Below, in pieces: positions 28,864 to 43,951 of a stretch of DNA of 64,000 nt. The translations under genes and the position numbers were made by a program. The stretch comes from a virus: IMG/VR virus record IMGVR_UViG_3300043584_000003, positions 35,163-99,162 of that record; one strand, given 5' to 3'. The first letter of the stretch is position 1; each line of letters starts with the position of its first letter. Under the pieces are notes generated by a model that made no database searches, was not told the DNA's origin, and saw nothing but the letters and a program-made list of their open reading frames with translations.

Positions 28864-30834
28864 CTAGTCGGTGACGTTCAACGTTTGATCGAGGTCGAGC
28901 GCCGAGTTCAACGTAATGTTTTCAGTTAGGTCTAACGCCGACGTGTCAGCATGTGGATCGATACCAATGAGGGCGGCGCGATCCCGCGTGATCTCCTCAA
29001 GACGTTCGAGCTTTTGAATCAATCGCTGAACCTGGTCCTCCTCGACGGTACCTCTTGTGACGAGATCGATGATCCGGATCGAATCGTGCTTTTCGGCTCC
29101 GGGACGATGCGGTCGATCCTCCTTCTGTCTTTCGTCGACGAGCGACCAGCTGCGCTGCACGTTAATGAGAGTGTCAGCGGCGGACATATTCAACCCGACG
29201 CCACCTGATTGGCCGGTGAAGACGAGCGCGCGGTTTCGACCCGCGTTCATGTCCTCAAGCGCGCGCTGGCGATCGATCGGTGCGACCTCGCCGCTGATAA
29301 TGCCGTGTGGAACATTTAGCTTATCGAGTCGAGCGGATACCATAGCCAGCACGTCCAGATGAACGACCGAGATTAGGACCGGTGCGATCCGATGGTTCAC
29401 GGTCAATACACCGAGCTCGTCGAGCACCTCCTCGAGTACGTCGAGCTTAGGCGACGGTTCGCGCATGGTCACCTTCCACGACGAGATGTCGTCCTCATCG
29501 GGTTTCTCGACGGTCACGGATGCTGATGCAAACTGCATTAACCGTGTTTTAACGACCAACTGGTTCGCGGCGAGCAACAGCGTGCCATCGGCTAGTCGCG
29601 TCCGTAGGCTGGTCTCAAACTCGCGGTACGCGCGCGCCTGCGTCGTCGACATCTCGACGACGCGCGTCTCGCGTATCTTAGGCGGGAGTTGCGGTAGCAC
29701 GACGGCCTTCAGCATTCGTCGAAAACGCGGGTCGAGGATCTTGAACAGCTCATCGCGCGTATCAGGTCGAACACCGACGACGTCCATGCCACCGAACGCG
29801 TTCCATGACAACAAACAGAAGCGATCTTGAAAGGCAGACTTAGTTGGGAAGTCGTCTGGTGCGACGAAGTGCATGATCGACCACAGATCGCCCGGATGGT
29901 TCGCGACCGGTGTACCGGTCAACGCCCAGCGGTATCGCACGGATGACGAGTGTCCGAGGTACCAAGCGGCTCGCGTTTGTTTTACCTGTGGGGATTTGAC
30001 ACGGTGGGCCTCATCGAGTATGACTATCTTAAACTCAAACTCATTCAACTCCTTGCGATGAACCTCACATCGTGATGGCGTTAGATTCTCGTCACCAGTA
30101 TGTGGATCACATTCACGGCATCGTATGAGGCGAACCGAACCGAACGGCGCAAGCCGTGAGAACAGTCGTGCTGACTCGATGTTGATGATCACCAACGCGG
30201 TCGGGTCGCCGCGCGCCTCCTTCAGCGTCTTACGCTTCTGTGCGGCGGTGCCGTCGACGACGTACGGCGTCGCGTTGGGCAACCAGACGGCGCTCTCCTT
30301 GGCCCAGTGCTGCTTGACGCTGTTAGGACAGATCACCAGCGCAGGTAGACCGCCGTGGTTAAGCTGCTCATGCGCACGAATCATAGAGAGTGTCTGTGGA
30401 GTCTTTCCGGCTTAAGGTACCTAAGCCCCCATCTCATCTCCGAGAAGTCCGTTGTTGGCACGTAGCATAAATGCTACGCCGGTCTCCTGGAAAGGGAAGA
30501 GGGTAGGTTGGGCATCACCTCTCTTCCACGAATTAAACAGCTCATGCTCGGGCGCGTCGGCCGGTAGCTCGAGCGCGGAGCGCAGTTCGATGGACGGTCC
30601 GATGCGCGCGTCGTGTAGCTTCCAAGCCCATTTAGCAAGCTTTTCACCGACGATCATATCGGCACCAAACAACCCGCGCATAATCACGAGTGATGACCAC
30701 GCGGCTGGAACGCGCCAGATCTTTTCTTGTGCGTCCCAACGCGCACCAGGAATCTGCTTAACCAGCGACTTCATCTGCCACTGCGTAGTAAGAGTGATGC
30801 TCTCGGTCATTGCATCATACTCGGCGGTCGCCAA
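28864..30834 (-). CDS. SNF2-family helicase interrupted in motif I by a 15-nt in-frame insert with two stops
   Basis: 30421-30834 ends LLGDEMGA*; the same frame continues VP*AGKTPQTL into 28864-30384 (ILDEAHRVK, LTGTPVAN, QKEDRPHRPG). Confidence 0.85.
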
Positions 30835-30893
30835 CGGCGTTCCTCACTAGGTCGTTCAAACAACGAAACGATGGCTACCGTACCGCGTGACGG

Positions 30894-31788: not shown

Positions 31789-33588
31789 CTACGAGCAGTC
31801 GCCCCAGTTCGGACCTACCTCGGCGGACCAGGTCAGCGGAACCGAGAGCAGCCGGTCGTCGTTGACAACGTCCTTGAGCGTAACGAGTACATCATTGAGA
31901 TCGTTGTGCGGTACCTCAAGATCGATCTCATCGTGGACGGGCCAGATCATGTATGGTCCGAGGCCGGCGTTATCCGCACCAATGATTTTCATCTTAAGGA
32001 TCTCGGCGGCGGTCCCCTGGATCACATAGTTAATTAGCGGGTAGAGCTTACGTTCGCTCGCGGTGTGCTTACGTCCGGTTAATGGTGAGCGAATGTACGC
32101 CTCGCCCTCGAGCGCTAGTCGCTCACGCGCGTCGCGGTCGACCTTACGAATCCAACGTGGAACATTCGGATACAACGCGTCGAAGTCGCGCATAAAATCG
32201 GCGGCCGCCTGCTCGGTAACACCTGCCGTCGCGGCGAACTTTTCAATGCCGGCGCCGAAGATCTTAGCATAGCCGCCGTTCTTGATCAGTTGACGCCGTG
32301 GATCGGACTTTTGAAAGTTAGGTTCCTTAAAAAGATTACGTCCGATGTTCACGAAGAAATCGCCGTCCGATCGGAACGCGTCGATCATACCCTGATCGCC
32401 GGACATATCCGCCATGACGCGCATTTCGATCTGATCCGCGTCGCACTTAACCCAGACCGAATCATCGGGAGCGATAAAGCTACGGCGAATCTTCTTACTC
32501 ATCGCTCCACGTACGGGGACGTTCTGGATGTTCGGGTTCGACGACGACATCCGACCGGTCCGAACACCGCTCGCACCGCCGGGTTCAAACGGATTCTGAC
32601 CCATGCCACCGACGGTGTTGATCGACGGATGAACCCGACCGTCGCGCTGTGACGCCTCAAGGTACGTCGACAGATACGTCGATACCATTTTTTGCGCGCG
32701 GCGTCGGTTAAGGACCACCTCGGCCAGTGGATGATTCATCTCCCGTAGAACGAACTTATCGAGCGCGAAGTCGCCATTCTTTGTATACTTCGTGAACTGA
32801 TAGTTCTGCGACTGAAAATACCGAATCACGTCGCGGTTAGAACCGGGATACAACCCGTAGTTTTTCGAACACCAGAGCTCGGCCTCGTCGACGTACCGCT
32901 GCAGCTCGGCGGCGAACGCCTCGACGTACGCACGATCAACCAGCGCGCCCTTACGCTCCATGCGTTCGCAGACCCAGGCGACGGCTAGCTCGAGCTCATA
33001 CGACGCGGGAGCCTCCCGCTGGACGATGGGATCGATGTATTCGTCGTACTGATATGTCAGGATCGTATCAACGCCAGAATAAGACCAAAAGGGTTCGTAC
33101 GTAATAGGAACCGTTGCCCAGGTCCAGCCGCCGCCCGTGCCAAGTGCGTCGCCAAGTTGGTCTTGAAACATCTTGGCACGTGGGTCGACGTGTTTCACCG
33201 CAAGGTTCTTCAGCGCGAGCGATCCGGTGCTGGATACGACGTGCGTCTTTAACCGCGTGTCGTCGCAACGATCTTCTGGCAGCCGGATGCCGAGCGCGTT
33301 ATAGATCATCGCGTTATCGAAGGTCATGTTATGTAAGACATAACGACCCTCATATTGCTGAAGTAGTTCAAGCGCAAGCCCAGCCCAGCCCGGATATTCG
33401 ACCGGAATGACGTACGATTCGCGATCGTCGCCGAGCTGGATCAACCGCGCATGATCCGTGTCCTTATTTAATCCTGTGGACTCGGAGTCGAGTGCGATCT
33501 TATCGTGCGTCGACAGCCAGCGCTTACATTCGTACGCGGTTTCAACATTGTCCACCAGGTGGACGGCGATGCCGTCAAGCCCCACCAT
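31789..33588 (-). CDS. polA: DNA polymerase A family with 3'-5' exonuclease domain
   Basis: ALDSESTGL (Exo I), HNMTFD (Exo II), YSGVD (Exo III), DADQIEMR (A), KNGGYAKIFG (B), VHDEI (C). Confidence 0.95.
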   Translation of the reverse strand: MVGLDGIAVHLVDNVETAYECKRWLSTHDKIALDSESTGLNKDTDHARLIQLGDDRESYVIPVEYPGWAGLALELLQQYEGRYVLHNMTFDNAMIYNALGIRLPEDRCDDTRLKTHVVSSTGSLALKNLAVKHVDPRAKMFQDQLGDALGTGGGWTWATVPITYEPFWSYSGVDTILTYQYDEYIDPIVQREAPASYELELAVAWVCERMERKGALVDRAYVEAFAAELQRYVDEAELWCSKNYGLYPGSNRDVIRYFQSQNYQFTKYTKNGDFALDKFVLREMNHPLAEVVLNRRRAQKMVSTYLSTYLEASQRDGRVHPSINTVGGMGQNPFEPGGASGVRTGRMSSSNPNIQNVPVRGAMSKKIRRSFIAPDDSVWVKCDADQIEMRVMADMSGDQGMIDAFRSDGDFFVNIGRNLFKEPNFQKSDPRRQLIKNGGYAKIFGAGIEKFAATAGVTEQAAADFMRDFDALYPNVPRWIRKVDRDARERLALEGEAYIRSPLTGRKHTASERKLYPLINYVIQGTAAEILKMKIIGADNAGLGPYMIWPVHDEIDLEVPHNDLNDVLVTLKDVVNDDRLLSVPLTWSAEVGPNWGDCS

Positions 33589-34941: not shown

Positions 34942-35926
34942 CGGCCGCCTCCGCTACCGACGCGATGGTCTGGATGCCGAGCACGCGACGCAGATAAGCA
35001 TCCGGTTCGTGATGACGGAAGCGAGCCCAGTACTGCGGATGCGGTGCGTAATGACTGATGTCGACGCCGACGCGGCGCAGCGTCTTACGCGCCTCGACGC
35101 CGAGCGCGACGACCCGAGGCTTGCCGAGCTTATTCCAGCAGGCGTGCACGTCGTCGACGTCGTTCGCGCTGACGACACCGATCTGCGACAGCAGCGTGCC
35201 GTGCGTCGCGACGCGCAGCGGTTCGCGCGTCAACGCAGAGAATAGGTAGTGTCCGGACGTACCGGGGAACGGCGCGAACGCGGGCCAGCTGCCGTATCTG
35301 ATCGGCTCGCCGGAGACACCGCGTCGATCACCGACCAGCAGTACGCTCGGCCAGCGTGGACCGATGTACGTGACGTAGTCGTTAAGCGCAGAGACGCGTT
35401 CGTGTTGTACGTGAGCGGTCTCGATGATGTCGTCAACATCGTCATTGGTTGGATCATTGTCGTCGAGCACGATAAGCGGCAGCAACGTTGACGCCATCGC
35501 GTGTTCAAACGCGCGTGTAACGTCGGGGATTCGATCGATCTCATCATACAGATCGTCTCGATGACGACCGCATGCGTCGAGATATTCGTTCGTTCGCCGG
35601 ACATGTACGAGCAACGCGCCGCGCGATAGCAAAAACAGTTCGAGCCACGCGTTAATGGCGGCATCGAGCTGCGTCGCTCGTCCGAGAACAAATGGATAAA
35701 CGGCCTCACCTACGTGCCAGCGATCACAGATGACGTTATGATCGTTGCCGGCTCGATAGTTGAGCAGCGGTTCCGCATATTCATCGAGTGGATGCGCGGT
35801 TGGCGGACCCCTGTGATAAACATCTAACGATGACAACGAGGCTCGCTGTCGGTTCAGCGCGAGCGCAAGTCGTTGTGCGAGCTGCGTTTTTCCAGTGCAG
35901 TCGCTACCGTCGAGCAAAATTAGCAA
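34934..35926 (-). CDS. dNMP kinase fused to a uracil-DNA glycosylase-superfamily domain
   Basis: LLDGSDCTGKT P-loop, CDRWHVGE; C-terminal VLLVGD, GTSGHYL, VVALG, HPQY; TTG start behind GGAG. Confidence 0.7.
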   Translation of the reverse strand: MLILLDGSDCTGKTQLAQRLALALNRQRASLSSLDVYHRGPPTAHPLDEYAEPLLNYRAGNDHNVICDRWHVGEAVYPFVLGRATQLDAAINAWLELFLLSRGALLVHVRRTNEYLDACGRHRDDLYDEIDRIPDVTRAFEHAMASTLLPLIVLDDNDPTNDDVDDIIETAHVQHERVSALNDYVTYIGPRWPSVLLVGDRRGVSGEPIRYGSWPAFAPFPGTSGHYLFSALTREPLRVATHGTLLSQIGVVSANDVDDVHACWNKLGKPRVVALGVEARKTLRRVGVDISHYAPHPQYWARFRHHEPDAYLRRVLGIQTIASVAEAADA

Positions 35927-36065: not shown

Positions 36066-36074
36066 ATCAGATGT

Positions 36075-36145
36075 TTGAACAACCGGGAATCGAACCCGGA
36101 ACATTCAGCTCAAGGCTGACGCTCTACCGTTTGAGCTATCGTCCG
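36075..36145 (-). tRNA. Degenerate tRNA-like element with 5-nt anticodon loop (pseudo-tRNA)
   Basis: - strand: GGACGA TA GCTC AAACGGTA GAGC G TCAGC CTTGA GCTGA ATGTT CCGGG TTCGATT CCCGG TTGTTC. Confidence 0.6.
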
Positions 36146-36159
36146 AGGCTAGTAGAATA

Positions 36160-36300
36160 CTCACGTCGACGACGGTTGATCACGGCCTGCCTGTTCACGC
36201 ACGCTCTACCACTGAGCTACCGAGCCATGATCTGGAGGCCCGGGAGGGGATCGAACCCACGACTTGCGCTTCTGGTCCGCGACGCGTGGAAACGACGCTG
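36160..36300 (-). ncRNA. Circularly permuted tRNA-like RNA (YrlA/Y-RNA-like)
   Basis: - strand order T arm (GTGGG TTCGATC CCCTC), acceptor stem closed by loop (CCGGGCC TCCAGATCAT GGCTCGG), D arm (TA GCTC AGTGGTA GAGC); outer limits approximate. Confidence 0.65.
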
Positions 36301-36695
36301 CCTACGTTTCCTGTGCCTGTAGCGAATGCCTGCTCGGAAAACCGAGGACCAGATCCGCCCGTCTAGGTCTGTCAGGAGGATCCGTGTCGGGAGAAGGAGT
36401 CGAACCTCCACCGTCCCGCGATCGTACGTTGTGACTTTGTCTGTGCTTTTGTCTGGTTGCTACGTCAATAGTCTATCAGCGGTGATCATCGTAATCGTGC
36501 CGTACCGTAACAAGATCCAAACGACGAACGGCCGACCCGTCCAACGTCGACCGTTCGTCCTGTTAGCGGTGACTACGGCCGCTCTACGGCCGGTGACCGC
36601 CGCTGTTGCGCGACCGCATCCGATACATCAATATCGATGTCAACACGATCACGAGTAGCGCGATCACGAGTAGTGCCCACGCGCCGGCTTCCACG

Positions 36696-37496
36696 TCAGC
36701 GCTCGCTGATGATGTAGCTGAACAACGCGTCGGCGATCTCGTGATCTGGCGCGAGAACGCGATTGGCCTCCTCGCGAGCGACCTCGACCGCAGCGATGAG
36801 CTCGTCAACGCGTTGCAGCAGCTGGCCGTATCGACGTGGGGACAGCGCGCCGGACCGCTCGATCTTCGTCCACACGCCGGCGCGGACGTCGTCGTCCCAG
36901 ACGAGCACCTGCTCCTTGTGCTCCTTGGTCGCCGCCGCGATCGACGTGTGTCGCTTGGTTCGCTTGTTTCGCACGGTCTCGACCGGTGCGGTCATCCACA
37001 CGTATGTATCGATGTTGTCCCGCGTCCACGTGTAACTGGGATTCAACACGGGCAGCGTCTTGATGAACGTACGGACGTCCTCGAGGCGCTTGCCGAGCAC
37101 CATCAGCGTGGTCACCGGTACATGCTCGACGAGCACGGTTTCGCTGCCACCTCGATCCGAAACGCGAATGTCAGCGAACGCGTTCGTGTCGGCCACGTCC
37201 ATCGTCAGCTGCAGGTCCCAGAATCGAGACATCGCGCCGGCCATGTCGTCGATGAGCTGTTCGGCCTTGAGCTCGACGATCTTCGTTTCGCCGGGCAACG
37301 TCTCTGGCGGGCCGTCGTCGGTGATCGCGTCGGGTGTGTACTCGCGCACCAGGCCGTGGAAGCGATCGGTCATCTTGGACTGGTGGTGTAGCACCGTCAC
37401 AGCCTCATGCGACATGGATTGCGCGCTCTTGCGCAGCCCAAGGATCGTACCCAGCGTCTGCGCTGGACGGCGTGGACCGGGTTCGTTGGTGGTCAC
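36696..37496 (-). CDS. Conserved hypothetical protein (DUF7873-like)
   Basis: HGLVREYTP...LPGETKIVELKAE...WDLQLTMDVADT...VPVTTLMVLGKRL...SGALSP...LIAAVEVAREEAN pattern recalled from phage/actinomycete homologs. Confidence 0.5.
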   Translation of the reverse strand: MTTNEPGPRRPAQTLGTILGLRKSAQSMSHEAVTVLHHQSKMTDRFHGLVREYTPDAITDDGPPETLPGETKIVELKAEQLIDDMAGAMSRFWDLQLTMDVADTNAFADIRVSDRGGSETVLVEHVPVTTLMVLGKRLEDVRTFIKTLPVLNPSYTWTRDNIDTYVWMTAPVETVRNKRTKRHTSIAAATKEHKEQVLVWDDDVRAGVWTKIERSGALSPRRYGQLLQRVDELIAAVEVAREEANRVLAPDHEIADALFSYIISER

Positions 37497-37711
37497 TCGT
37501 TCCTCCTGGATGTTGATGCTGCCTGGTTCAGTTCGGTGATGCGCTCGGCCAACGTGCTCACGCTCTCAATGATGATCACGATCTGACGTGTTACCGTGTC
37601 GACGCCTTGGTCCTGCCCGAGCGCGCTGGCCGCCGCGTAAAACCGATGACCGGCGAGCTTGAGCTCCTGACGAAGTGCCTCGACGGCCTCGGCGCGCGTC
37701 GGTTCGGTCAT
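37493..37711 (-). CDS. Small coiled-coil hypothetical protein
   Basis: Likely start ATG 37711 (MTEPTRAEAV); coupled at both ends. Confidence 0.5.
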   Translation of the reverse strand: MTEPTRAEAVEALRQELKLAGHRFYAAASALGQDQGVDTVTRQIVIIIESVSTLAERITELNQAASTSRRNE

Positions 37712-38079
37712 ACCGATACCGTCTCCTTCTCCTTCTTTGACGTCGGTAGTGCGGCGCGTGTTCGCGTGACGTATTCGCGCCACTCGGCGGTCAGCTCGGA
37801 ATAGTACTCGATGTATATGAGGGCGAATCCGAATCGCGCCCCCCAGCGGATCGTCTCGTCCTTCTCGGCGGTTGGACCGCCGAGCGCGTGCATGCCGTGC
37901 TCGAATGGATTGCGCACAGATGACCCGCCGTACCACCACGCGTCGCTGAACGTCTGTCCGAGCACGCATTCGTGCATATTCGACAGATCGAGCGTACCGG
38001 TGTTGATCCGATCACGCCAGTCGGCCGGGCCGTGCTCGTCGAGCAGCCGCGCGCCGCGTTCGATCTCCTGCTGAAACAT
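37708..38079 (-). CDS. Hypothetical protein
   Basis: GGAG RBS; ERGARLLDEHGP.DWRDRI...CVLGQ. Confidence 0.6.
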   Translation of the reverse strand: MFQQEIERGARLLDEHGPADWRDRINTGTLDLSNMHECVLGQTFSDAWWYGGSSVRNPFEHGMHALGGPTAEKDETIRWGARFGFALIYIEYYSELTAEWREYVTRTRAALPTSKKEKETVSV

Positions 38080-38101
38080 CGCGTCTCCGTTCCGTTTGTT
38101 C

Positions 38102-38437
38102 CTACTTCTGCTGACAGTCGGGCCAAAAATCGCTCACCTGGCACCTGCCGGTGACGTCTTCGTACTCGTTGATCTGCGCGTTCATGTCTTGGACGACGAC
38201 CGTATTCGGGTCACCTGGGTGAACCTCAATTACCAGCGTGCCGCCCACCGGCGGAGCGACCGTTGCCGTCGTCGTGGTAGTCGTACCAACGAAGACGTCG
38301 CCCGTACCGCCGTTGCCGTCATTGCAGGCAGCGGTCAGCATGCCGACCGCTGCGGCCGTCGCCACGAGAATCAGTTGAAGGCCGAACGGCCGACGCGTGC
38401 CGCGCGTCGACCGCTCGTTCCTGCCATCGAGTGTCAC
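38102..38437 (-). CDS. Putative lipoprotein
   Basis: Hydrophobic signal plus LTAAC lipobox. Confidence 0.55.
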   Translation of the reverse strand: MTLDGRNERSTRGTRRPFGLQLILVATAAAVGMLTAACNDGNGGTGDVFVGTTTTTTATVAPPVGGTLVIEVHPGDPNTVVVQDMNAQINEYEDVTGRCQVSDFWPDCQQK

Positions 38438-38439
38438 GG

Positions 38440-39048
38440 CTACTTGCCCTTGCCCTCGGAGAAGTCGTACGACGCGCGCCCGGTGATCCGCACCTCGTTC
38501 TTCGCGTCGTCCCAGACGGCGGGCGCGAAGTACGCGTCGACGTTGCCTTCCCAGTACTTGCCGAACACGTGACCATCACCGCCGACACACAGCACGTAGG
38601 TCGCCGTCGTGTCGCTCGGGTAGACGCCGTTCGGTTCCATCTGCTTGACCGTGACGTTGCCGCCGTTGTATTCACCACGATATTGAATGACCTGATCCGG
38701 GTTGGTCAGGCTGGTGGTCGCCGGGATCGGCATGCCGATCGACGGGCACGTGAAGATCGGATGCTCGATGCCCTGGTTGAAGAAGAACGACGTCGTCCGA
38801 ACGCCCTTGATCTGCGCGGTCTCGATGTCGATGAGGTTCTGGCGCAGCTGCGAGTAGCTCTCCTTCGGGGCCGGTTGATTCTTGACGTACTGCTTCGAGA
38901 TGCTCTCCTGCTGCTTGGATTCCTCCTTCTGCGAGTCGGACGTCTGCGGCTCGCATGCGCTGGCGGTCAGCACCAGAGTAGCGCACCCGACCAGGATCGT
39001 CATCCCAACGATCCGACCCCACGAGTTCTTGTCGTCGTTGTTTTTCAC
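38440..39048 (-). CDS. Putative lipoprotein
   Basis: Signal peptide plus ASAC lipobox; CPSIGMPIP. Confidence 0.65.
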   Translation of the reverse strand: MKNNDDKNSWGRIVGMTILVGCATLVLTASACEPQTSDSQKEESKQQESISKQYVKNQPAPKESYSQLRQNLIDIETAQIKGVRTTSFFFNQGIEHPIFTCPSIGMPIPATTSLTNPDQVIQYRGEYNGGNVTVKQMEPNGVYPSDTTATYVLCVGGDGHVFGKYWEGNVDAYFAPAVWDDAKNEVRITGRASYDFSEGKGK

Positions 39049-39076
39049 GTGTTCGTTCCTTTCGTCCTTTGTTCCG

Positions 39077-39505
39077 TCACTTGATGTTGTACTCGGACTG
39101 TGGGTTGATGGTGCCGGCCATGCAGTTCTTGTGCACCCACGACGTCACATCGTCCGGCATCGGGTTGGTGTCGTTGAGCTTGGACGCGTCGCGGCAGATC
39201 GTGATGACGATCGACTTGCGTTGCGCCGTGAACTGCCCGACCTGCGCGGGCGTCGAGCTAGGATCGGCGACGTCGGCGGAGATGTCGTTGACCGTGCCGA
39301 TGTTGCTCACGATCTGGTCCTTGAGCGCCTCCTGTCGCCCGTATGACTTGTCGTACAACTTGTCCTCGCGCGTCGTGTTCTGTTCCTTGAACCACCAGCC
39401 GGCGACCCAGCCGACGATCCCGATCACGACGATGAGTCCGACGACGATCGCACCGGCGATCAACGCGATGGCGGTGCCCTCCGCGTCCTCACGATCTACC
39501 TTCAT
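39077..39505 (-). CDS. Membrane-anchored protein
   Basis: Single N-terminal TM segment. Confidence 0.6.
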   Translation of the reverse strand: MKVDREDAEGTAIALIAGAIVVGLIVVIGIVGWVAGWWFKEQNTTREDKLYDKSYGRQEALKDQIVSNIGTVNDISADVADPSSTPAQVGQFTAQRKSIVITICRDASKLNDTNPMPDDVTSWVHKNCMAGTINPQSEYNIK

Positions 39506-39768
39506 GACTTGTTTCTCTCCAGCTGATCGGCCTCGTGCTTCTGGATGACCTCGAGCGCGCGGTCACGCATCGACATGCCGACGATATCGAGCGTCACATC
39601 GTTCTCGCTTCCGAGGATCTGTCGAACATCGCGCAACGCGAGCTGCGCGGCCCGCGCGTCTTGCTTGGCGCGCGGCAGCTCATCGGCACGTGAGGAGTAA
39701 CGCAACAGCGTGACGACCATGCCGATTAAGACGACACCGATGATAACTACCGTGATAACGATCTCCAT
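39502..39768 (-). CDS. Membrane-anchored coiled-coil protein
   Basis: N-terminal TM; GGAGG-like RBS. Confidence 0.6.
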   Translation of the reverse strand: MEIVITVVIIGVVLIGMVVTLLRYSSRADELPRAKQDARAAQLALRDVRQILGSENDVTLDIVGMSMRDRALEVIQKHEADQLERNKS

Positions 39769-39873
39769 CTGACCTGCCTCCTAATCTTCGATCGGTCGTT
39801 CCGTCTCTGCAATCGTAGCGACCGACGTCACCATTATAGTGACGCCGGCCGCCTGTTTCCCGATACAGAAACG

Positions 39874-39958
39874 CAGAGATGACAGGATTTGAACCTGCGG
39901 AGGTGTTACCCTCTTTCGTTTTCGAAACGAACGCCTTAGGCCGCTCGGCCACATCTCT
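39874..39958 (-). tRNA. tRNA-Ser(CGA)
   Basis: AGAGATG TG GCC..GGC G TTCGT TT CGA AA ACGAA, long variable arm, GCAGG TTCAAAT CCTGT CATCTCT G; no encoded CCA. Confidence 0.92.
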
Positions 39959-39963
39959 TAACA

Positions 39964-40006
39964 GGAACGAGTACGCCGAGGGTGTCTGAACCAGCGTACT
40001 CGTTCC
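39964..40006. terminator. 13-bp hairpin between two tRNAs
   Basis: GGAACGAGTACGC...GCGTACTCGTTCC. Confidence 0.45.
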
Positions 40007-40023
40007 CGGTCCCGCCCGGGACG

Positions 40024-40097
40024 CGCGCTTCCATGGATTCGAACCACGAACCTTCCGCTCCGTAGGCGGACGCTCTATCCGATTGAGCTAGAAGCGC
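40024..40097 (-). tRNA. tRNA-Arg(ACG)
   Basis: GCGCTTC TA GCTC AATCGGATA GAGC G TCCGC CT ACG GA GCGGA AGGTT CGTGG TTCGAAT CCATG GAAGCGC G. Confidence 0.93.
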
Positions 40098-40101
40098 AGG
40101 T

Positions 40102-40138
40102 GGGACGGCCGGACAAGGGCGTCGAGGCCGGCCGTCCC
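40102..40138. terminator. 11-bp hairpin right after the TROVE stop codon
   Basis: GGGACGGCCGG...CCGGCCGTCCC. Confidence 0.45.
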
Positions 40139-40142
40139 GGTC

Positions 40143-41819
40143 TTAGATCTCTCCTCGCGAGAAGCTGCTGATAAGCTGCGGCACCGAGGCGTCGAACCCA
40201 GTGACGTCCAACATACCGCTATCCGTCGGATCAGCGATCGTGAAGTCGGTCGCCGTCATGCCGACCACAACCAGACGCGCCGGGATGCCCATCTTTTCGC
40301 GGTAACGGCGCAACGCCTGGTGCGGATGCACGTTACCGGCCCAGGTCTCGTTGTCCGTGTAGATCACGAACGTATCGATCTTGATGTTGTTTTTGAGCGC
40401 GTACAACATCGGCTGTGCGCAGTCCGTGCCGCCCATCGGCAGCTCGTGACACGCGCGAACGGCGTCGTCGAGCCGCTGCCGTGGACTGATCGCGAGCGGA
40501 CGGCACGCGCTGTTCGAATGCCAATCCTCGCTGCCCCAACGCATATTGATACGGTTACCGTCCTTGGTCGTGAACCCGACGATCTCGTAATCCTTCTCGA
40601 CGCTGGCGGTCGTCAAGGCGAGCGCGGCGGCCGCCTCGCGACAGGACAGATTCGAATCGGCGATCGTCACGTTCATCGAACCCGAGATGTCTAGCGCCAG
40701 CATCACGCGCTTGCCGGTCGGCTCGATCGCCTCGAACGCCGCGTAGAACGCCGTGTCGAGCGCGTCGACGATCCGACGCGTCGGCTGCCACGTCGAGTTA
40801 CCTCGGAACGAGTACCCGGACGCGTACGTCTTCAACGCGAACAACACCGAGATCGGGTGAATTCGACCGCGCTTGAGTAGCTCAGGATTGGTCAGCTGAT
40901 GCACGACCTCGTTGGTCCAGCCGCCGGTGTTCGGCAGCAGTCCGATGCGCGTCAAGCGCGGCAGCTGACGAAGCAACGCGGTCTGCGGCACGCCGTTCTC
41001 GAGCATCGCCTCCCAGACGGCGGGTACGTTCATAGCCGCGTCCGGCAGCGCCTCCCAGGGCAGTCGGTAGTCGGCGATCAGCTTGGCGTACTCGTTCTTC
41101 GACGCGCGCTGGATGCGCTCGAAGCCCTCGATGATCCGCAGCGGATCCTCGGGCAGCAAAACCGTAAGACCGAGTACGTCGGCAGCACGCTTGCGACCGC
41201 AGATCCAATCAAACAACTCACGACGCACCAGGTCGTTCTTTTCTGGCTTCGGATGCGCCATGCGCAACACGTCACGATCCGACCAGCCGACGCGCGTGCG
41301 GTACTTGACGGCCTGATACGCGAGCTTCTCGATCGGCTGGTTCAGGTACCAATCGGACACGCCACGGCGGAGCACCGGACCCCAGCCGCGAAACTGCTCG
41401 ACGTACTGAACGAACGTCTTGAGCGTCGAACCGGTGCGCGCGACCAGCGGCACGGCCTCGGCCGCCGCGCGACGACCCTCGAGGTTACCGAAGCTGATGA
41501 CCGCCGCGAGCACGAACAGTCCCGGCTGCTGGCGCGGCGCGAGTCCCGCCTGGGAGACCTCGACGACGCGACGGCAGACCTGCAGGCCGTCCAGCGCGAT
41601 CAGGTCGCGCAGCGCCGCCAGGTTGTCCAGCGCCAGGTCGCGCGGCTTGACGTAGTACGACCCGCCGTCGACGCCGAGCAGCAGAAACCGGTCAAGCCGC
41701 GTCCACGGCGTCACGCGGAACGTAAAACCGCCCGCGTTGTTCGGAACCTGCCGAGGACTAGCCGCACGTGATTGCGGCGTCGTACGCGTGGACAGCTCGG
41801 TCAGCGGATCGCGTGCCAT
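40143..41819 (-). CDS. rsr: TROVE domain Ro60/Rsr ribonucleoprotein
   Basis: NNAGGFTF...LDRFLLLG..GSYY, KYRTRVGWSDRDVLRMAHPKP, GRIHP, LALDISGSM (vWA MIDAS), GGTDC, YTDNET, GFD. Confidence 0.95.
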   Translation of the reverse strand: MARDPLTELSTRTTPQSRAASPRQVPNNAGGFTFRVTPWTRLDRFLLLGVDGGSYYVKPRDLALDNLAALRDLIALDGLQVCRRVVEVSQAGLAPRQQPGLFVLAAVISFGNLEGRRAAAEAVPLVARTGSTLKTFVQYVEQFRGWGPVLRRGVSDWYLNQPIEKLAYQAVKYRTRVGWSDRDVLRMAHPKPEKNDLVRRELFDWICGRKRAADVLGLTVLLPEDPLRIIEGFERIQRASKNEYAKLIADYRLPWEALPDAAMNVPAVWEAMLENGVPQTALLRQLPRLTRIGLLPNTGGWTNEVVHQLTNPELLKRGRIHPISVLFALKTYASGYSFRGNSTWQPTRRIVDALDTAFYAAFEAIEPTGKRVMLALDISGSMNVTIADSNLSCREAAAALALTTASVEKDYEIVGFTTKDGNRINMRWGSEDWHSNSACRPLAISPRQRLDDAVRACHELPMGGTDCAQPMLYALKNNIKIDTFVIYTDNETWAGNVHPHQALRRYREKMGIPARLVVVGMTATDFTIADPTDSGMLDVTGFDASVPQLISSFSRGEI

Positions 41820-41862
41820 GATAACCTCGTTCCTCGGTCGATCGGTCGATCGGTTGTATTAC

Positions 41863-41970
41863 CTACGGACGATACGCATCACCGCATCGTGTTCCAACCG
41901 CGATAATGACGAAAAACGTCACAAGCAGCCAGAGCCGTGGATCATACAGCATAGTCTTGATCGTCGTCAT
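41863..41970 (-). CDS. Small membrane peptide, 35 aa (not in ORF track)
   Basis: MTTIKTMLYDPRLWLLVTFFVIIAVGTRCGDAYRP. Confidence 0.3.
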   Translation of the reverse strand: MTTIKTMLYDPRLWLLVTFFVIIAVGTRCGDAYRP

Positions 41971-41979
41971 GGTTCGTAC

Positions 41980-42028
41980 CGTACGCGGCGGACGTATAGC
42001 GAACTAGACCATACGTCCGCCTCGTACG
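41980..42028. other. Long hairpin
   Basis: GGCGGACGTAT/ATACGTCCGCC stem with outer CGTACG pairs. Confidence 0.5.
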
Positions 42029-42044
42029 CGATGAGCGTATGTTT

Positions 42045-42087
42045 ATCGACCGGATAACTTTGCTGGGTAACCGATCGACCTCGGCCC
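42045..42087 (-). ncRNA. Short Y-RNA-like hairpin 1
   Basis: GGCCGA..GTCGATCGGTTACC...GTTATCCGGTCGAT; shares its helix with three neighbouring elements. Confidence 0.45.
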
Positions 42088-42153
42088 ATCTTACCTCCGT
42101 TAGAAATCCCACACCCAACGCCGATTGTTAGCGAGTTCCGGTAGGAGGCCTCG

Positions 42154-42226
42154 TTGCGGGAACCGGACTCGAACCGGTGACCTCAGGGTTATGAGCCCTG
42201 CACGCTACCAACTGCGCTACCCCGCG
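42154..42226 (-). tRNA. Initiator tRNA-fMet(CAT)
   Basis: CGCGGGG 5' end with C1:A72 mismatch, GGG:CCC anticodon stem, CT CAT AA loop, TTCGAGT T loop. Confidence 0.93.
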
Positions 42227-43222: not shown

Positions 43223-43951
43223 TTACGCTTGGATGGTATCTGGAACATCGCGCAGTAGATTCCTTACGTGAGTTGGATCAACGGGAATACCTGGACCCAT
43301 GGTGGTCGTGAACGTCACCTTACGAAGATAGCGGCCCTTTGCGGCGGACGGCTTGGCTCGGATCACCTCGTCGAGTACGGCGGCGTAGTTCTCGACCAGC
43401 GCGGTGACGTCGAACGACGTTCGACCGATCACGACGTGCAGATTGGCCTGTCGGTCGGTTCGAAACGTAATCTTACCGTGCTTGACGGCGGCAACCGCCG
43501 AGCCGACGTCCGGCGTGATCGTGCCCATGCGCGGGCTCGGCATGAGCCCACGCGGACCAAGCACGCGCGCTAGCGGCGTGACCTTGTTCATCTGATCGGG
43601 AGTTGTGATCACGACGTCAAAGTCGAGCCAACCCGACCGAATACGTGCGACTAGGTCATCGGTGCCGACCTCGTTCGCACCGGCGGCGATCGCGTGATCC
43701 GCTTGATCACCGACGGCAAACACGATCACGCGAACGACTCGGCCGGTGCCGTGGGGCAGATCGACCGTGCCGCGTACGACCTGGTCGTGCTTGGTTGGAT
43801 CAACGCCGAGCCGAAAAGCCACCTCGACCGACGCGTCGAAACGCGTGTGACTGGTCTGCTGCGCGAGCCGTGCGGCCTCGTACGGCGTGTACAGCCGCGT
43901 GCGATCGACCAACGCGGCGACCCGCTGGTAGTTCCTGCCGTGCTTCGTCAT
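43223..43951 (-). CDS. rplA: 50S ribosomal protein uL1 (full length, actinobacterial type)
   Basis: [73 protein letters not shown]. Confidence 0.95.

Follow-up and report, generated by a model that had tools for sequence, protein, structure and literature searches.

A 15-nt coding gap in the Walker A motif of a phage SNF2 helicase belongs to a family of HNH-linked inserts and is probably skipped by a short ribosome hop

The DNA analysed here is a 64,000-nt stretch of a virus (hereafter, the window), corresponding to positions 35,163 to 99,162 of IMG/VR record IMGVR_UViG_3300043584_000003. The source record is 100,903 bp long and is rated complete by CheckV. A single SNF2 gene is present in the 100.9-kb genome; it encodes a helicase, lies at positions 28864..30834 of the window and is part of a replication module in which its neighbours specify a family-A DNA polymerase and a PD-(D/E)XK exonuclease. 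Cultured phages yielded no close relative of the helicase, the nearest matches being actinophage 'DNA helicase' genes at <=43% identity (best 43%). Two ORFs are called at this locus, 30421-30834 and 28864-30384, both in one frame. Read on the - strand, the upstream SNF2 frame (30424..30834) encodes the N-terminal domain, the Q-motif and the first half of the Walker A motif; it ends with ...GLLGDEMGA, stopping at the proposed take-off codon. The downstream frame (28864..30408, - strand) opens with GGA AAG ACT (G-K-T) and continues through the SNF2 and Helicase_C domains to its stop. About 136-137 aa precede the gap and 513 aa follow it. As an earlier note on this DNA had proposed, the two in-frame halves make up one helicase of ~650 aa: when joined, they form a single SNF2-rel_dom + Helicase_C protein (PF00176, 6.7e-32; PF00271, 2.6e-8), and the whole gene, including one internal TAG and one internal TAA, matches PF00176 at 3.5e-40.

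The interruption is seen on the - strand between 30438 and 30400, where the sequence is GAT GAG ATG GGG GCT TAG GTA CCT TAA GCC GGA AAG ACT, precisely the 13-codon string that had been quoted, and translates to DEMG-A-*-V-P-*-A-GKT. The gene belongs to the SNF2 family (SF2), its motif I, DExGxGK[TS], being restored only on skipping 15 nt. These are TAG GTA CCT TAA GCC (30409..30423, - strand), with the TAG placed directly after the take-off codon. In five related viral contigs the Walker A is uninterrupted, the closest (L002) reading DEMGAGKS. In a DNA alignment with these five relatives the window is longer by exactly 15 nt, the very length whose removal was said to restore the motif.

To check the insert, contigs from four runs were placed on the helicase gene. 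Contigs of the source sample contain it unchanged, with zero differences and zero gaps. It is equally unchanged in a 332-nt contig from an independent 2018 study (X3), which spans it, and is also carried by a 151-nt contig from a third study (X4), where only about 13 nt remain on one side. The three insert-bearing sources are separate soil-metagenome studies, dated 2018-2025. Such constancy across three studies indicates that the insert is neither an artefact nor a fleeting mutation, upholding the earlier contention that a sequencing error is not its usual source; an assembly artefact is ruled out by the same identity. The insert contains GGTACC (KpnI) and CTTAAG (AflII) sites, and an engineered linker was considered for that reason. 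This was rejected given the origin of the sequence in soil metagenomes of three studies and the 49 KpnI sites in the genome. Taken as a whole, an explanation at the DNA level (a minority insert-less genome, an assembly error or a laboratory linker) could appeal to these two sites and to the fact that contigs hide rare variants. It appears highly improbable in view of the identical insert in the contigs of three studies from 2018 to 2025, the abundance of KpnI sites in the genome (49), the related natural alleles found in many runs and the viral contigs, among which no insert-less copy of this phage was found. Over about 860 nt, the window and the independent 2018 run show a sole difference, C>T at 30838, 4 nt upstream of the TTG start of the helicase.

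A protein search with the 137-aa N-fragment, which admits candidates of like length and thus selects truncated copies, returned relatives at 49-72% identity that end at the same place with DEMGxG; a profile search added more. At the DNA level, the junctions in this clade contain 11 different Walker A inserts, of 4, 4, 5, 6, 7, 8, 8, 10, 10, 13 and 15 nt, all situated between DEMGx(G) and (G)KTPQTLS. Their lengths are mostly not multiples of three, and the downstream frame always resumes exactly at (G)KT. The Walker A is canonical in five members of the same clade (L002, L105, L113, L123/132 and L134) and in 75 more distant homologs. A non-coding gap inside one ORF, with flanks that are contiguous in uninterrupted homologs, is the arrangement expected of translational bypassing.

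Alleles are given as the preceding codon, the insert and the following codon. The window reads GCT-TAGGTACCTTAAGCC-GGA (15 nt). The other alleles are L151, GGC-TGACTGAACAGGT-AAA (13 nt); L015, GGT-TGAGAGAGGT-AAG (10 nt); L018-20, GGT-TTAGATAGGT-AAA (10 nt); L013/14, GGC-TAGTACGC-AAG (8 nt); L016, GGT-GATACGAC-AAG (8 nt); L017, GGT-GATCCGC-AAG (7 nt); L021, GGT-TGAGGT-AAG (6 nt); L148/149, TCC-TTACC-GGC (5 nt); L147, GGT-TGAC-AAG (4 nt); and L150, GGC-TAGC-AAA (4 nt). No common sequence or structure is apparent across the 11 alleles. Among the distant uninterrupted homologs, L003, L004 and L005 have helicase C-parts of 994, 893 and >1161 aa, compared with 513 aa in the window; these extensions could be inteins or fusions.

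Ratios of dN to dS were calculated between insert-bearing alleles by the Nei-Gojobori method. Between the window and its sister L013, the ratio is 0.096 in the N half and 0.068 in the C half, at dS above 1, in agreement with the earlier statement that both halves are otherwise intact. Other insert-bearing pairs range between 0.13 and 0.32. Both halves are thus under purifying selection (0.07-0.32 between insert-bearing alleles), selection between lineages being strictly datable to after the insertion only in the small L148/L149 sample. In this pair, which shares an identical insert, all three differences within the KTPQTLS codons are synonymous. Apart from the Walker A gap, the halves are damaged only in L021 and L147-L150, by an HNH insertion or what remains of it. 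L016 and L017 have Leu (CTG) in place of the Met that follows KTPQTLS, so that no canonical start is available for a P-loop-bearing C-fragment. Altogether, the insert is real and persistent and is one member of a 4-15-nt family of Walker A inserts in genes whose two halves are still selected.

These data bear on the main rival to productive skipping, namely that the insert is the scar of a selfish element with no productive decoding, the helicase being inactive or fragmentary. The products would then be the 137-aa N-fragment and perhaps a P-loop-less C-fragment from the ATG at 30384. The calling of the gene as two ORFs fits this idea, homing elements can be mildly deleterious and recent, and the near-identity of the window and X3 means that the allele could be young. 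Against it stand the 11 alleles in diverged lineages, with halves intact and HNH insertion as the sole other lesion; the dN/dS values of 0.07-0.3 in both halves; the purely synonymous changes in the codons right after the gap (L148 versus L149); the lack of a usable internal start in L016 and L017; and the fact that this is the sole SNF2 helicase of the genome and lies within its replication module. We consider a scar of this kind unlikely.

The origin of the inserts is illuminated by a second group of N-fragments, whose termination, at ...SWRT*, comes sooner. In L021 this point is followed by a 441-nt ORF, counting its stop codon, for an HNH_3 protein of 146 aa. The ORF is coupled to the helicase parts at both ends: the N-domain stop overlaps its GTG start, and its TGA in turn overlaps an ATG, 60-70 nt ahead of the DEMG codons, at which the helicase core begins anew. 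An intron within the L021 insertion was considered and discarded, since Rfam gave no match and the insertion is the HNH ORF. Intact HNH homologs are found in L147 and L148, and remnants in L149 and L150. Every locus with an HNH gene or remnant (L021 and L147-L150) also has the Walker A insert (5/5), the HNH lying about 100 nt upstream. In the HNH-bearing relatives, the 3' end of the cassette is a ribosome-binding site, GGAGGTGAT, from which the helicase core is restarted. In every insert-bearing allele that has no HNH, the string survives as the in-frame codons GGA GGT GAT GCC CAA, the first being AGA in the window. There the footprint of the lost cassette, AGA GGT GAT GCC CAA (R-G-D-A-Q; 30508..30522, - strand), is homologous to GGAGGTGAT. 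The footprint is present in 12 of the 12 aligned insert-bearing loci (11 alleles), in none of the five uninterrupted alleles and in five further N-fragments. This distribution implies that the window gene descends from an allele that was invaded and then re-fused without the endonuclease.

In a tree of the C half, interrupted and uninterrupted genes are intermixed with strong support, and L148 and L015 have about 90% identity over the length of the gene. L148 and L149 share a tract of 110 identical nucleotides, running from the ribosome-binding site to 2-3 nt past the insert, in genes that are otherwise about 80% identical; beyond it, third-position differences resume. As the tract ends just past the insert, the gap can be identified as the right-hand end of a laterally moving element. 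This signature is confined to the L148/L149 pair: among all insert-bearing alleles, no excess identity was seen in the cassette-proximal segment (0.738 vs 0.740). The inserts are linked to the HNH cassette as a family and share its lateral movement. This right-hand end accounts for the origin of the insert better than does the earlier suggestion that it controls helicase output.

The following sequence of events can be envisaged. A mobile HNH homing-endonuclease cassette would once have inserted into the helicase gene about 100 nt upstream of the gap; the endonuclease gene would later have been deleted and the helicase re-fused, leaving the RGDAQ codons in place of the cassette's ribosome-binding site. 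At the DNA level the gap would serve to destroy the endonuclease target site, and by analogy with T4 MobA and gene 60 it probably represents target-site immunity. No HNH gene is left in the genome of the window phage; hence, any immunity would be directed at the endonucleases of co-infecting phages. The cassette HNH, too, is without a close relative in cultured phages (40% identity at most, in a different context). HNH-centred scans of viral and genome contigs gave no hits, probably owing to patterns that presuppose an N-terminal Met in genes that start with GTG. In L013 and L014 the PD-(D/E)XK exonuclease gene downstream of the helicase encodes 835 aa, compared with 498 aa in the window, and gives a faint LAGLIDADG_3 match (L013:2878-4322 and L014:2871-4315). 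An intein or endonuclease insertion in this neighbouring replication gene is the probable reason for its greater length.

Several features of the inserts relate to translation. In the window, the proposed take-off codon is GCT (Ala; 30424..30426, - strand), the last sense codon before the gap, and the proposed landing codon is GCC (30409-30411, - strand), the last triplet of the 15 nt. Read from the sequence, GCC is the first Ala-cognate triplet downstream of GCT in any frame. Of the 11 alleles in the family, seven have an insert whose first codon, read in the upstream frame, is a stop, and in two this codon is UUA; TTA is rare, as these genes use it for 10 of their 800 Leu codons. At the other end of the insert, the last triplet is cognate to the sense codon before the gap in 5/11 alleles and matches that codon at two of three positions in the other six. 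The corresponding probabilities, about 7e-10 for stop or UUA as first codon (binomial, at 4/64) and about 2e-7 for the last triplet, are optimistic, because the alleles are phylogenetically related and a search by truncated N-fragments favours early stops. In the five cognate alleles, the last insert triplet is also the first cognate one met when scanning downstream. The window thus combines take-off and landing by the same tRNA with a slow A-site codon (GCT / TAG ... GCC). A dead gene would give no reason for the stop/UUA and landing-triplet patterns. The scar alternative can point to the six alleles with near-cognate landing triplets alone, which look inefficient and are poorly used by known bypass systems. 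The match between take-off and landing could partly be a by-product of the way in which the inserts arose (microhomology).

L016 and L017 are the two alleles with neither a stop nor UUA. At L017:485-500 and L016:3412-3425, the insert and the preceding Gly codon read GGTGATCC and GGTGAT. The 3' end of 16S rRNA, GGAUCACC, is complementary to both GGTGATCC and GGTGAT, and these inserts could therefore act as a Shine-Dalgarno-like stimulator. Two other signals pointed out in the earlier note fared less well. A GGAG is indeed present just upstream of the gap; however, it is not conserved in the relatives. The supposedly atypical flanking codons have a GC3 of 0.52 in the 99 nt before the gap, as against about 0.66 elsewhere, which is within local variation.

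We infer from these patterns that the gap is skipped at the level of translation. As UAG enters the A site, the peptidyl-tRNA-Ala would leave GCU, pass 12 nt and re-pair with GCC; translation would then resume at GGA, giving DEMGAGKT. The protein would remain unchanged despite the interruption of invariant Walker A codons in the DNA, because the ribosomes are proposed to skip the gap. Our favoured interpretation is that the 15 nt are the end of an HNH cassette, probably an immunity scar, and are decoded by a GCU to GCC hop; on the sequence evidence we regard this as probable, though by no means certain. The programmed hopping put forward in the earlier note thereby gains the support of the 11 insert alleles, the stop/UUA enrichment, the take-off-like last triplets and purifying selection, while keeping the status of an interpretation.

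Recoding of another type would leave extra residues in the P-loop, either through double readthrough (DEMGA-x-VP-x-AGKT) or, in the relatives, through +1/-1 frameshifting. The window's 15 nt are in frame, stops and rare codons stimulate frameshifting too, and a +1 shift could read the 4-nt alleles at the cost of one added residue. Readthrough would nevertheless be needed at two different stops, UAG and UAA. The phage has four tRNA genes, Gln(UUG), Ser(CGA), Arg(ACG) and Met(CAU) (G000:C1 71235-77388, that is, window 36073-42226), among which there is no Ala, Gly or suppressor tRNA. Moreover, with gaps of 5, 7, 8, 10 and 13 nt the protein would gain 1-4 residues immediately ahead of the invariant GK[ST], a change never tolerated in 80 homologs. 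Recoding with added residues is accordingly very unlikely here; the same argument against frameshifting and readthrough has been used for phiHau3 (PMC10732093).

Removal of the insert from the RNA, as a micro-intron or by excision of the hairpin with an endonuclease and a ligase, is no less improbable. The neat hairpin of the window insert would suit such a process, as would the putative Ro60, Y-RNA-like and permuted tRNA-like elements of the genome. Yet the other alleles have neither a hairpin nor a common sequence and are as short as 4 nt, the L021 region tested gave no Rfam match, no RtcB-type ligase was found in the genome, and enrichment of stops and UUA in the upstream frame is a translation-level feature. 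A group I, group II or other self-splicing intron is equally at odds with a length of only 15 nt, the lack of shared structure and the absence of an Rfam match (L021). The splicing of a tiny intron, which had been offered as an alternative to hopping, thus finds no support among inserts that share no structure or sequence, some of them of 4-5 nt, in a genome without RtcB.

Should ribosomes hop over the gap as we favour, the hairpin of the window allele might be a local aid. It extends from 30409 to 30427 on the - strand, with its 5' arm at 30427-30420, loop at 30419-30417 and 3' arm at 30416-30409, and consists of an 8-bp stem (GGCUUAGG/CUUAAGCC) with one G-U pair and a UAC loop. In this allele, the base of the stem holds both the take-off GCU and the landing GCC. 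The near-palindromic nature of the insert, emphasized in the earlier note, is borne out by this stem; as a shared signal it fails, the other alleles having no hairpin. Among random 15-mers placed in the same context, 2.8% reach an 8-bp stem, which makes the window hairpin just mildly unusual. No shared hairpin or significant local folding was detected, Z-scores lying close to 0 for every allele. The window hairpin is peculiar to its allele rather than a family signal and plausibly helps the longest hop. The 17-mer of the hairpin was also considered as a mobile mini-element and rejected, as its occurrences in four viral contigs are chance matches in unrelated, non-P-loop contexts; the only other match in the window with 3 mismatches, at 32317, is at chance level. 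A separate pairing is predicted between the E-M-G codons, GAGAUGGG, and the T-L-S codons, CCCUCUC (window 30430-30437 with 30381-30392). It recurs in the relatives and would loop out the Walker A site. This pairing may bring the take-off and landing sites together; being also present in uninterrupted genes, it is older than the inserts.

Ribosomes most likely hop over the 15-nt window gap, in a short-range counterpart of the T4 gene 60 bypass. In the account of Manning and Atkins, a conserved replication gene is interrupted by the HNH gene of the MobA/gene 60 element, whose 3'-terminal gap prevents self-nicking. The gap outlasts the endonuclease, which decays, and there are 'hit-and-run' fusions as well as parental alleles that are intermixed (bioRxiv 2022.08.31.505936). 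In the helicase system, likewise, the gene into which an HNH gene has inserted is a conserved replication gene, and shortly downstream, at the 3' end of the element, a non-coding gap falls within highly conserved codons. A stop directly follows the take-off codon and the landing codon is cognate. The endonuclease has decayed or been lost in some lineages with retention of the gap, and re-fusion of the 'hit-and-run' type has left element-derived codons, with parental alleles intermixed in the tree. As in T4 gene 60, the take-off codon of the window allele is within a stem-loop. In contrast, the gap here lies in the Walker A of an SNF2 helicase instead of the Toprim domain of a topoisomerase, the HNH protein has 146 aa compared with about 270 aa for MobA, and the gaps vary widely in length (4-15 nt) and in sequence where T4 has a conserved 50-nt cassette. 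The architecture is shared in the relatives, where the gap travels with the HNH at its 3' boundary; the window keeps the footprint only. Given the different gene, gap and HNH size as compared with the Topo2L cassette, the helicase system is an analogue of MobA/gene 60 and not a member.

The second precedent is the large terminase of phiHau3, in which a 10-nt bypass was documented by a junction peptide, given by the UAA variant in E. coli and found by mass spectrometry; in phiHau3 and two prophages the large-terminase inserts, of 10 and 7 nt, are UUA-led and have been proposed as a sensor of host growth phase (PMC10732093). In both systems the frame of an essential actinophage gene is disrupted by 7-10 nt inserted at a highly conserved junction, the flanks match uninterrupted homologs, and the first codon of the insert is slow to decode, UUA leading in L018 and L148/L149. 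The differences are that the gene is a helicase, that most helicase alleles start with a stop and not with UUA, and that the helicase inserts are tied to a homing-endonuclease cassette and not to a growth-phase sensor. The window itself departs further from the UUA-led type, its gap being in frame, 15 nt long and TAG-led, unlike L018 and L148/L149, which are of that type. The helicase insert system is homologous to neither MobA/gene 60 nor phiHau3. In the mitochondria of Magnusiomyces capitatus, short mobile inserts of 27-55 nt, known as byps, occur in many copies per genome, and ribosomes pass over them from a take-off codon to a landing codon that matches it, often with a stem-loop. The helicase gap differs by its single site per genome, its shorter length and its link to an endonuclease. 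Byp elements are cited in the phiHau3 study (PMC10732093, refs 58-60). No description of the helicase insert system was found in the literature.

Natural bypassing has so far rested on few systems, that is, T4 gene 60 and its homologs, the yeast mitochondrial byps and the lightly documented phiHau3 terminase. The helicase clade contributes about a dozen natural alleles of one site, with gaps of 4-15 nt, varied A-site codons and landing triplets and an independent HNH cassette, and offers in effect a ready-made mutational series for the needs of short ribosome hops. It also supports the general idea that homing endonucleases guard their own loci by means of translation-silent inserts in invariant codons. 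Because gene callers report each such gene as two 'hypothetical' ORFs, essential phage genes are mis-annotated as broken. A bolder and rather doubtful extension is that short hops are routine and efficient in these actinophages, following rules of their own (landing on a 2-of-3 match, gaps of 4-15 nt, a bridging hairpin for the longest gap, that of the window), and that homing endonucleases exploit hopping to place 'protein-silent' inserts in immutable motifs. A genome-wide scan for other same-frame split ORFs is noisy at the GC content of this genome (60%). A candidate phage gene for ribosomal protein uL1 was noted at window 43223-43951; its product might tune the ribosome for hopping.
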